In this document: in pieces, positions 4,326-36,705 of the stretch
Numbering within the stretch: the stretch's first letter is position 1
Layout: each line of letters starts with the position of its first letter
From: Candidatus Aenigmatarchaeota archaeon
GTDB lineage: Archaea; Aenigmatarchaeota; Aenigmatarchaeia; CG10238-14; SpSt-28
DNA length: 64,000 nt
Direction of reading: 5' to 3'
NCBI GenBank assembly: GCA_038733315.1
Contig: JAVYPJ010000002.1
Span: 84,571-148,570 of the forward strand
Notes under the pieces: model-generated
Database searches by the model: none
The model's input: only the letters and a program-made list of their open reading frames with translations
Told to the model about the DNA's origin: nothing
Translations under genes and position numbers: made by a program

Positions 4326-4419
4326 AATTATAAGAAACTTTTGGTTCAGAAATGTTTTTTAATGATTAACATAAATGAAAAATTTTTTATAAACATAAGG
4401 AGATTAGTTATTTCTTTAT

Positions 4420-4493
4420 GGGCCCGTAGCTCAGTATGGTAGAGCGACCGGCTCTTAACCGGTAGGTCGCGGGTTCGAATCCCGCCGGGCCCA
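4420..4493 (+). tRNA. tRNA-Lys(CUU)
   Basis: GGGCCCG/CGGGCCC acceptor stem, ACCGG-CT CTT AA-CCGGT anticodon arm, GTTCGAATC T-loop. Confidence 0.97.
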
Positions 4494-4496
4494 AAA

Positions 4497-25130: not shown

Positions 25131-25967
25131 CTTACAAAAGGCACAAATCTCTTGATTAGTAACTTCTTTACAAATCTTGCATTCTCTAAACTCTTCTTTA
25201 ACTATTTTTTTATAATACTTTTTATTAAAATTTACTAAACCCTTAAGAAAATTGATATTAAAATTTTTAAAATTTTTTTCGTTAAAATTCAAAAATTCAA
25301 AAATCTTTGAATCCTCGTTTTTAGCTAAGTAGCAGCAGTATTTTGGTGAATATGGACAGCTAATACTTGTTATTGGTATTTTTTTTATTTCACAATATTT
25401 TTTATTTTCATCTGGAATTGCAAATATGAGTGGTCTAATTTTTGTTAGTTGTTTTGGGTGTTCACTTTTTAGTTTTGGCAAAATTTTAAAATTCCAGTCA
25501 AAATTGCTATGGATAATATTTTTGTAGTAATTTATAAGAAAATCAAATGCATGATGCCCTGTAGCAAGTTTTGTAGCTCCCAACTCTCTAGGAATTTTAT
25601 TCATCAAATATCTTTTTACTAATCCGCATATTGAACATATAGGTCTTTTAGTTATTTTAGAAATTTTTAAGATATCAAGATTAAATTCCTTCTTAACATC
25701 AGTAACAAAAAGTTCTACTTTAATAACATTCGCAATTTTTTCAACATCTTTTTGCAATTCGTAAGAATATCCAAAACCTAAATTAATATGGTATGCATAT
25801 ATTTCAGCACTAATATTTTTTTCTTCGATGTATTCTTTTAGCAAAGATAAAGCAGCGGAACTATCTTTTCCTCCACTTATAGCAACAAAAACTTTATCTT
25901 TTTCCTCTATTAACTTAAATTTTTCTATGGTTCTAAAAATTTTTCGCTTATAATCGTTAATTTCCAT
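25110..25967 (-). CDS. TtuA/TtcA/Ncs6-family tRNA thiolation protein
   Basis: PP-loop AISGGKDS, CSICG, ATGHH, IRPL, CPY, C-terminal CKIC...CAFC zinc finger. Confidence 0.9.
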   Translation of the reverse strand: MEINDYKRKIFRTIEKFKLIEEKDKVFVAISGGKDSSAALSLLKEYIEEKNISAEIYAYHINLGFGYSYELQKDVEKIANVIKVELFVTDVKKEFNLDILKISKITKRPICSICGLVKRYLMNKIPRELGATKLATGHHAFDFLINYYKNIIHSNFDWNFKILPKLKSEHPKQLTKIRPLIFAIPDENKKYCEIKKIPITSISCPYSPKYCCYLAKNEDSKIFEFLNFNEKNFKNFNINFLKGLVNFNKKYYKKIVKEEFRECKICKEVTNQEICAFCKLTKNFA

Positions 25968-26852: not shown

Positions 26853-26925
26853 GATTTTAATTTTTAAGTTAGTAATATCCACTCTAAAACCTTAAGCTAA
26901 GCAAATAAATTAAAAAATTATCAGC

Positions 26926-27023
26926 TGGGCCCGCTGGGATTTGAACCCAGGACCTCCCGCTCTCTTAGATAATAGAGCGTCGCCATATAAGGCGGGCGCT
27001 CCACCAGACTAAGCTACGGGCCC
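26926..27023 (-). tRNA. tRNA-Ile(UAU) with 24-nt intron at 37/38 (26962..26985)
   Basis: Reverse strand: GGGCCCG acceptor, CCCGC/GCGGG stem, CT TAT A. BHB central helix CUUA pairs perfectly with intron UAAG, which fixes the anticodon register. Confidence 0.92.
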
Positions 27024-27078
27024 ATGTTGTCTTATAATTAATGTTTATCCTTAAATTAATATTTTTTATAAATTTTAA

Positions 27079-31353: not shown

Positions 31354-31462
31354 GGGCCCGTAGCTCAGTATGGTAGAGCGGCGGGCTTTTAGTTTTAAAC
31401 TAAAAGCTCTGATATAAAATGAAGAAACCCGTAGGTCGCGGGTTCAAATCCCGCCGGGCCCA
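31354..31462 (+). tRNA. tRNA-Lys(UUU) with 35-nt intron at 37/38 (31392..31426)
   Basis: Body nearly identical to tRNA-Lys(CUU); GCGGG/CCCGT stem; BHB helix CUUU pairs with GAAG. Confidence 0.92.
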
Positions 31463-36235: not shown

Positions 36236-36267
36236 ACTTATGTTATTAATTTATTATGTATTTTAAT

Positions 36268-36341
36268 GGGCGGGTAGCTTAGCCTGGTGGAGCGCCCGGC
36301 TGATAACCGGGAGGTCGGGAGTTCAAATCTCCCCCCGCCCA
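36268..36341 (+). tRNA. tRNA-Ile(GAU)
   Basis: GGGCGGG/CCCGCCC acceptor, CCCGG-CT GAT AA-CCGGG anticodon arm. Confidence 0.97.
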
Positions 36342-36342
36342 A

Positions 36343-36705
36343 CTATATAAACAAAGAAAGCTTAGCCGAGAAAAACCTTAGATATATTTTTCTTATTCTA
36401 GTGAATTTTCCCTTTACAAAACAGTTAACACTAATGAATTTTATTTCAAAGTTCCTTTTTATAAAGGATACTAAGTTTAAATATATTGCACTTATCTTGG
36501 TATAAAACCATAAAAAGATTATCGCAGATACGACCATAGTAATTCCTATGTTAATTGGTAACAAAATCTGTTTTATGTCCAATCTTAGCGTGGCTGATAT
36601 TAGAGTTCCGAAAAACACAAGAACATCCAAAACAGTGCTATAAATTGCTAAATCTATCATAATCTTTTTGGCAAGGTTTTTATTTTGCAAAATTTCAAAT
36701 ATCAT
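36343..36705 (-). CDS. Hypothetical membrane protein
   Basis: 120 aa with 2 TM segments. Confidence 0.55.
   Translation of the reverse strand: MIFEILQNKNLAKKIMIDLAIYSTVLDVLVFFGTLISATLRLDIKQILLPINIGITMVVSAIIFLWFYTKISAIYLNLVSFIKRNFEIKFISVNCFVKGKFTRIRKIYLRFFSAKLSLFI

Follow-up and report, generated by a model that had tools for sequence, protein, structure and literature searches.

Introduction

In box C/D RNAs, methylation falls on the nucleotide that pairs with guide position 5, counted upstream from box D or D'. A guide of this class resides in the intron of the euryarchaeal pre-tRNA-Trp, as described for Haloferax volcanii and for Pyrococcus sR50 (Clouet-d'Orval et al. 2001, as described in PMC4090602 and PMC7994747). 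The Trp intron is a full sRNA with boxes C, D', C' and D and with guides for C34 and U39. Separate sRNAs of Pyrococcus target nucleotide 34 of tRNA-Leu with the anticodons CAA and UAA, of tRNA-Met, and of tRNA-Trp (PMC7994747). Um34 is present in the tRNA-Gln(UUG) of Sulfolobus, and 2'-O-methylated wobble bases occur in the tRNAs of thermophilic archaea (PMC7668247). In Nanoarchaeum equitans, the elongator tRNA-Met has a 66-nt intron with a C/D-like stable RNA that contains one box C-like element and one box D, for which the accessible part of the report proposes neither a target register nor a family (Randau 2012, PMC3491384). Half-mer, or hemi, box C/D RNPs showed weak activity at high salt only, which was not site-specific, and a second motif restored the specificity (Hardin and Batey 2006, PMC1635284).

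The long-standing question of why introns persist in the tRNA genes of archaea has received few concrete answers. Here we describe a tRNA-Lys(UUU) gene whose intron sequence suggests a job. The gene lies in a window of 64,000 nt, which is the whole stretch of DNA analysed. The intron feature is best read as a variant of the guide known from the pre-tRNA-Trp intron. Like that guide, it is intron-borne, pairs with its own anticodon loop, places nucleotide 34 fifth from a D-type box, and forms a guide pairing that cannot coexist with the fold of the splice site; in this genome, the intron of Trp(CCA) is itself a member of the single-kink-loop family. It differs from the full sRNA described for pre-tRNA-Trp in having one guide and one D'/C' kink-loop within 23-46 nt, and the design is found across up to nine tRNA species instead of in Trp alone. 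The N. equitans intron likewise comes from a DPANN archaeon and from a tRNA other than Trp, but it is longer and was described for a single tRNA. The trans-acting sRNAs of Pyrococcus and Sulfolobus have the same targets and register, but they are encoded by separate genes with a full bipartite architecture, whereas the guide here is part of its substrate. The engineered half-mer RNPs share one kink motif and one guide with the Lys intron, but they are artificial. In the open-access literature, we found no account of short single-kink-loop guides across many tRNA species.

Results and Discussion

The tRNA-Lys(UUU) gene and its intron

The host genome has a size of 733 kb and a G+C content of 27-28%, and its nearest relatives are hot-spring MAGs of Candidatus Aenigmatarchaeota. 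The anticodon arm of tRNA-Lys(UUU) was parsed into the stem GCGGG/CCCGT and the loop CUUUUA|A, which is interrupted by the intron (Table 1). An Rfam scan of the window returned only tRNAs, and the intron matched no sRNA family.

Table 1. Coordinates of the features discussed in the text. Numbers without a contig prefix refer to the 64,000-nt window; C1-C4 are contigs of the same genome, and the window lies on C2. In the text, G000 is the window's own genome, the other G-numbers are genomes of relatives, and L-numbers are loci fetched from relatives.
Feature	Coordinates	Strand	Evidence and remarks
tRNA-Lys(UUU), one canonical intron	31354-31462	+	Rfam RF00005 65.2 bits; ARAGORN intron mode; exon/intron parse
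5' exon, tRNA nt 1-37	31354-31391	+	parse
Intron, 35 nt, site 37/38; houses guide, D', loop, C'	31392-31426	+	parse; same parts in relatives' orthologous introns
3' exon, tRNA nt 38-73	31427-31462	+	parse
Anticodon UUU	31388-31390	+	parse; wobble U34 = base 31388
Palindrome (target strand, TTA, guide element)	31385-31407		sequence
Target strand GCTTTTAGTT, nt 31-37 + intron nt 1-3	31385-31394	+	10 bp with 31398-31407
Guide (antisense) element AACTAAAAGC, guide positions 11 to 2 upstream of D'	31398-31407	+	position 5 pairs U34
Box D'-like CTGA	31409-31412	+	single T (31408) between guide and D'
Loop of kink-loop, TATAAA, 6 nt	31413-31418	+	sequence
Box C'-like ATGAAGA	31419-31425	+	tandem G.A/A.G with D', then A-U, then G-C to D' position 1
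BHB central-helix intron strand GAAG	31421-31424	+	pairs CTTT 31386-31389; entirely within C'
tRNA-Thr(UGU), 22-nt intron without guide/kink-loop design (comparator)	14781-14875	+	Rfam, ARAGORN, parse
tRNA-Ile(UAU), 24-nt intron without guide/kink-loop design (comparator)	26924-27024	-	Rfam, ARAGORN, parse
tRNA-Lys(CUU), intronless (comparator)	4419-4494	+	ARAGORN; near-identical to Lys(UUU) outside anticodon arm
tRNA-Ile(GAU), intronless	36267-36343		separate gene from Ile(UAU)
tRNA-Arg(UCU), intronless	C2:168861-168936		genome-wide census
tRNA-Ser(CGA), 55-nt intron	C1:372329-372469
Stand-alone C/D sRNA, 16S rRNA double guide	C1:209712-209760	+	both guides match 16S rRNA C2:190261-191733
Stand-alone C/D sRNA, ATGATGA-12-TTGA-CTAA-ATGATAA-12-CTGA	C2:59116-59165	-	D guide pairs pre-tRNA-Ser(UGA)
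Fibrillarin and Nop5, adjacent genes	C1:73470-74767		269.6 bits; Nop 149 bits
L7Ae	C1:173521-173799		97.8 bits
EndA, single 397-aa protein, two catalytic-domain matches	C2:44240-45433	-	full-length similar to PDB 4fz2, E = 2.9e-80
PP-loop ATPase (ATP_bind_3)	25374-25895	-	36 bits; just upstream of tRNA-Ala/tRNA-Ile(UAU) pair
Elp3	C1:191168-192679		559.6 bits; ~1 kb downstream of tRNA-Gln(UUG)

The sequence GCTTTTAGTT-TTA-AACTAAAAGC is a palindrome that gives a 10-bp hairpin with a 3-nt loop. As an earlier note on this DNA had stated, it buries nucleotides 31-37, including the anticodon, and the same pairing is found in the minimum-free-energy fold of the anticodon arm and intron (-13.8 kcal/mol, z = -3.06 compared with dinucleotide shuffles). 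The note had also proposed that the hairpin competes with the helix of the splice site. The BHB at 37/38 consists of the central helix CUUU/GAAG, with three Watson-Crick pairs and one G.U pair, the bulges UA|G and AA|A, and a weak outer helix. The hairpin excludes this central helix, and a fold that keeps the BHB core reaches at best -5.6 kcal/mol. Because of this energy difference, the competition is, as calculated, real and strongly one-sided in naked RNA.

The 10-bp duplex covers guide positions 2-11, which is the form of an archaeal C/D guide of about 10-12 nt with the target at position 5. Downstream of it, the K-loop motif CUGA-6 nt-AUGAAGA has the tandem G.A pairs and the non-canonical stem of an archaeal internal C'/D' motif. 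A terminal K-turn of box C (RUGAUGA) and box D (CUGA), as in an archaeal C/D sRNA, was also searched for, but the 35-nt Lys intron contains no second box pair.

Perfect 10-bp hairpins are not rare in this DNA, with three counted in the window and 3.1 expected from Markov-1 simulations. Therefore, the case for a function rests on placement and comparison, and not on the palindrome alone. What stands above chance at the level of sequence is the exact placement on the anticodon loop, the fixed register to a box motif, and the reappearance in further tRNAs and genomes together with compensatory changes.

Introns among the tRNAs of the genome

In the whole genome, ARAGORN reported 49 tRNA genes and Rfam gave 47 matches. 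Fifteen intron-bearing tRNAs were identified by the ARAGORN intron mode and exon/intron parsing, independently of the motif described here. Within the window, tRNA-Thr(UGU), tRNA-Ile(UAU), and tRNA-Lys(UUU) have introns, and tRNA-Lys(CUU), tRNA-Ser(GGA), tRNA-Ala(UGC), tRNA-Ile(GAU), and tRNA-Leu(CAG) have none, as the earlier note had listed. From these three carriers it had concluded that introns are restricted to UNU tRNAs and are kept for a modification of U34 together with a t6A37-type one; an extended form of this reading has both coordinated by the hairpin. The genome-wide census contradicts the restriction: UGU, UAU, and UUU are the only UNU carriers among the 15, and the other 12 are Ala(CGC), Leu(CAA), Leu(UAA), Gln(UUG), Glu(UUC), Trp(CCA), Met(CAU), Cys(GCA), Tyr(GUA), Ser(UGA) in two genes, one of which is on C3, and Ser(CGA). 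The tRNA-Arg(UCU), for which an intron had been predicted, is intronless, which is the outcome that the note itself had set against its rule. Thr(UGU) and Ile(UAU) are not parallel cases to Lys(UUU), because both introns are without the guide and kink-loop design. The link to a modification at wobble position 34 survives from that proposal and its t6A37 part does not, because G37 is found in most tRNAs with the hairpin design. Taken as a whole, the UNU explanation is highly improbable, and the pattern that holds in the sequences is a design carried by the tRNAs that decode NNR codons in split codon boxes and, in addition, by Ser(UGA). In both Ile(UAU) and Thr(UGU), the intron starts with TGGC.

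One layout is common to eight of the 15 introns, namely those of Lys(UUU), Gln(UUG), Glu(UUC), Leu(UAA), Leu(CAA), Trp(CCA), Met(CAU), and the Ser(UGA) gene on C3. A variable spacer is followed by the complement of the tRNA's own nucleotides 31-36/37, which often continues into the start of the intron. A single nucleotide, in most cases U, separates this complement from a D'-like YUGA (CAGA in Trp), and after a loop of 3-7 nt there is a C'-like RUGANN(A), from which a short stretch with AA at its end leads to the 3' splice site. In all eight introns, guide position 2 pairs with nucleotide 31, so that position 5 pairs with the wobble nucleotide 34. Pairing of nucleotides 34-36 with guide positions 5-7 is found in 8/8 cognate combinations compared with 5/56 non-cognate ones. 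The long intron of the Ser(UGA) gene on C1 was considered as a further member, but its five-pair, wobble-rich match was judged spurious.

The 55-nt intron of tRNA-Ser(CGA) resembles a fuller C/D RNA (AUGAUAA-12 nt-CUGA-AAAUA-AUGAUGA...), and its D' guide has no match to the anticodon loop of its own tRNA. Contigs C3 and C4 carry extra tRNA genes for Ser(UGA), Ile(GAU), and Lys(CUU) and an odd Pro(AGG), whose sequences differ from the copies on C1 and C2; they probably reflect a second strain or contamination (estimated contamination 4.2%).

Conservation, register, and covariation in related genomes

Relatives were searched by BLAST with the tRNA-Lys(UUU) gene and with a covariance model of the anticodon arm and intron, which was seeded with the Lys orthologues and four paralogues. 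The BLAST search found Lys(UUU) orthologues with an intron throughout the genus and the family and also in further families of the order. In their introns the guide, D', and C' are kept while the spacer and loop drift, and the D'/C' pairs co-vary (CTGA/ATGAAG, TTGA/ATGAAA, TCGA/ATGAGA, and TTGA/ATGATA). With the covariance model, 35 of 41 genomes, among them the genome of the window, gave 1-9 copies, and the Trp intron, which is absent from the seed, was recovered. The whole-genome model search scored only about 150 preliminary candidates, and it missed the introns of Glu and of Ser(UGA) on C3, both of which were found by a direct locus search. The Lys(UUU) genes of several relatives (loci L033-L035, L037-L040, L042, L044, L047, and L049, including genera g2, g4, g7, and g9) have an apparent second, non-canonical intron at about nucleotide 30/31 in the 5' strand of the anticodon stem; within it, the anticodon loop is copied as a GCTTTT-like sequence, and the guide intron at 37/38 is also present.

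A set of 104 introns was parsed, consisting of those of this genome and of the relatives' loci fetched after the 41-genome search, with Ser(UGA) on C1 left out. The carriers are Leu(CAA) 26, Gln(UUG) 21, Met(CAU) 19, Lys(UUU) 13, Trp(CCA) 10, Leu(UAA) 7, Glu(UUC) 6, Ser(UGA) 1, and Arg(UCU) 1, and the counts in relatives are selected for the design, because the model used to gather these introns has the hairpin and the neighbouring D' built in. Two censuses are free of this selection, with the design in 8 of the 15 introns of this genome and in 8 of the 12 of the same-genus genome G003. In G035, the design was present in 7 of about 19 introns in a partial parse, with many of the remainder at non-canonical sites. 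An Arg(UCU) intron with the design occurs in G003 (locus L061), G035, G021, and G009, of which those of G003, G035, and G009 were read by eye.

The register is constant: guide position 5 pairs with nucleotide 34 in all 104 introns, and the guide duplex sequesters nucleotides 32-35 in every one of them. The cognate anticodon is fully paired in 101 introns, compared with 5.4% of the non-cognate combinations. In the model-based alignment, 97.9% of the cells are paired compared with 28-49% when the partners are slid, and 314 double-sided changes were counted compared with 103 in shuffles. Among the 98 distinct aligned sequences, the column of nucleotide 34 and guide position 5 contains UA in 51 and CG in 47, with none unpaired. 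The seed alignment of the Lys orthologues and four paralogues is good up to D' but not over C', and the pairs of the kink-loop were therefore counted with our own parser. A MAFFT alignment of the eight paralogous introns, in which the guide and boxes were misplaced, was not used.

The box D' sequences of the 104 introns are UUGA (81), CUGA (17), UCGA (5), and CAGA (1), and the loop of the kink-loop is 1-9 nt long. The tandem GA/GA is invariant. Next to it, D' position 1 pairs with C' position 6 in 102 introns (U:A 66, U:G 19, and C:G 17). A G at C' position 6 accompanies C at D' position 1 in 17/18 introns and U in 19/86 (Fisher p = 9e-9, relatedness not corrected). When D' position 2 is C, C' position 5 is G in 5/5 introns, and when it is U, the opposite base is U, A, or G. 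The nucleotide preceding D' pairs with the one following C' in 90/104. At the level of sequence, the D'/C' pair is thus the non-canonical stem of a C/D K-turn that is closed by a short loop. The overlap between the BHB strand and C' is variable: it amounts to 4 nt in 16 introns, is partial in 45, and is absent from 43, and the strand is fully inside C' in Lys, Trp, and Ser.

These comparisons bear on two alternative explanations. A functionless palindrome that arose by chance in AT-rich DNA would fit the number of 10-bp hairpins in the window, but it does not account for the position on the anticodon, the compensatory changes across nine anticodons, or the conservation in the genomes searched, and we regard its likelihood as negligible. 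The intron may instead act mainly after its excision, as a linear or circularised mini guide that works in trans, with the mature tRNA or further RNAs as its targets. Introns and C/D sRNAs of archaea are able to form stable circles, and the Haloferax Trp intron is able to act in trans, as cited in PMC4090602 and PMC7994747. However, three of the ten Lys(UUU) pairs use intron nucleotides, leaving 7 bp with the spliced tRNA, and the guide duplex extends into the intron in 41/104 introns. On balance, an action after excision appears quite improbable.

Stand-alone C/D sRNAs and protein partners

A strict four-box pattern identified only two stand-alone C/D sRNA genes in the genome and none in shuffled genomes. 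Their internal motifs, CUGA/AUGAAGA and UUGA/AUGAUAA, are the same variants as those of the introns. The sRNA on C1 is a typical double guide for 16S rRNA, with one exact match and one match with a single mismatch at sites about 130 nt apart. The D guide of the sRNA on C2 forms 10 contiguous base pairs with pre-tRNA-Ser(UGA), from nucleotide 31 to intron nucleotide 3, with position 5 on U34, and the targeted precursor has a 64-nt intron without the mini design. This pairing predicts that the organism addresses the wobble nucleotide 34 of an intron-containing precursor in trans, with the same geometry as the cis hairpin of Lys. We found no target for the D' guide of this sRNA. In a scan for trans guides against every other tRNA, including Arg(UCU), only the Ser(UGA) sRNA was convincing, and the other matches lay in unrelated sequence. 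Because the Arg(UCU) gene here is intronless and no trans guide for its product was detected, the modification, if real, would be dispensable there or made otherwise.

The genes for fibrillarin, full-length Nop5, L7Ae, and EndA are all present in the genome, which supports a guide function. Nop5 aligns end to end with the Pyrococcus furiosus Nop5, including the coiled coil, with a short deletion near the tip. A loss of the coiled coil to suit half-size guides was considered and discarded, because the coiled coil is kept. The EndA in Table 1 is similar over its full length to PDB 4fz2, the broad-specificity epsilon2 enzyme of ARMAN-2. The epsilon2-type (three-unit) EndA of ultrasmall archaea has been described in PMC3239211. 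A three-unit EndA would tolerate the relaxed BHBs found here, such as those with an A.C mismatch at nucleotide 34 in the C34 tRNAs.

The hairpin and an L7Ae-type kink-loop could also form a maturation device (an anticodon mask, a folding chaperone, or a splicing timer) that puts no methyl group on nucleotide 34. Such a device is consistent with a hairpin conformer that exceeds the BHB conformer in stability by about 8 kcal/mol, with the overlap of C' and the BHB strand, and with the lack of specificity of single-motif C/D complexes in vitro (PMC1635284). However, it leaves unexplained the one-nucleotide spacing to D' that puts nucleotide 34 at guide position 5 in 104/104 introns and the full C/D sRNA that lies in the same register on U34 of another pre-tRNA. 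It also leaves unexplained why the carriers are the classic Nm34 tRNAs (PMC7994747, PMC7668247). We therefore consider a pure maturation device unlikely.

A probable guide for methylation of the wobble nucleotide

With a probability of roughly 0.7, we interpret the Lys(UUU) intron as a minimal cis-acting guide of the box C/D type with a single kink-loop, which would direct the formation of Nm34 and would also order methylation before splicing. In the proposed pathway, ten intron nucleotides would pair with the tRNA's own nucleotides 31-37 and the first three intron bases. The D'-like CUGA and the C'-like AUGAAGA, with the 6-nt loop between them, would then fold into a kink-loop that L7Ae should bind. 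L7Ae would recruit Nop5 and fibrillarin for the 2'-O-methylation of the nucleotide opposite guide position 5, which is U34. After release of the particle, nucleotides 32-35 would pair with the 3' end of the intron to form the BHB, which could be cleaved by the epsilon2-type EndA. Methylation would precede splicing because the guide duplex holds nucleotides 32-35 and because C' of Lys is the BHB strand. The anatomy, register, covariation, conservation, and presence of the proteins are seen in the sequences, and the binding of L7Ae, the methyl transfer, the order of events, and the way in which a single-kink guide would reach its site specificity are inferred.

By analogy, the carrier set matches the known guided Nm34 targets Leu(CAA), Leu(UAA), Met, Trp, and Gln(UUG). 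The main difficulty for a guide function is that there is one kink motif and no terminal C/D pair, and single-motif complexes perform poorly in vitro (PMC1635284). In many members of the family, the guide duplex is short (6-7 bp). Judging from its sequence, moreover, Nop5 keeps its coiled coil, so that nothing points to an enzyme adapted to act as a monomer. Two pre-tRNAs on one Nop5 dimer might restore the two-fold arrangement and the specificity.

There is about an even chance that this interpretation extends beyond Lys(UUU). Natural single-kink-loop C/D guides would then be a lineage-wide trait of Aenigmatarchaeota and neighbouring DPANN archaea, residing in the introns of up to nine tRNA species, installing Nm34 in cis, and gating splicing. 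The same even odds cover the proposed set as part of this extension, which comprises Lys, Gln, Glu, Arg(UCU), Leu(UAA), Leu(CAA), Trp, and Met, as NNR decoders of split boxes, and Ser(UGA). If true, introns would gain a selectable function, which is to aim methylation at the tRNA's own wobble base and to block splicing until it is done. They would also be natural half-size C/D guides, and the bipartite C/D architecture, which has been thought obligatory, would be dispensable in nature. If the guides work, the model of how the RNP measures its target would need revision, because in vitro work required a second kink motif for specificity (PMC1635284).

Ribose methylation as a replacement for lost wobble enzymes was considered and rejected, because genes for Elp3 and a PP-loop ATPase are present (Table 1). 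Other wobble-uridine chemistry is thus probably present in the genome, and ribose methylation would supplement rather than replace it.

Annotation of tRNA genes

Introns of this kind have a practical consequence for annotation, because they make ARAGORN miscall the anticodons of several tRNAs. Without the intron mode, the program overlooks tRNA-Lys(UUU), and with the intron mode it calls tRNA-Stop(tta). In the same genome, the intron mode gives tRNA-Stop(tta) for Gln(UUG), Ser(tga) for Glu(UUC), and Ala(agc) for Thr(UGU). The miscalls arise because the guide hairpin misleads the placement of the intron, and automatic annotations of genomes with such introns will be wrong. Among the isoleucine tRNAs, Ile(UAU) is present beside a separate Ile(GAU), and the decoding of AUA apparently does not involve an agmatidine-type CAU tRNA.
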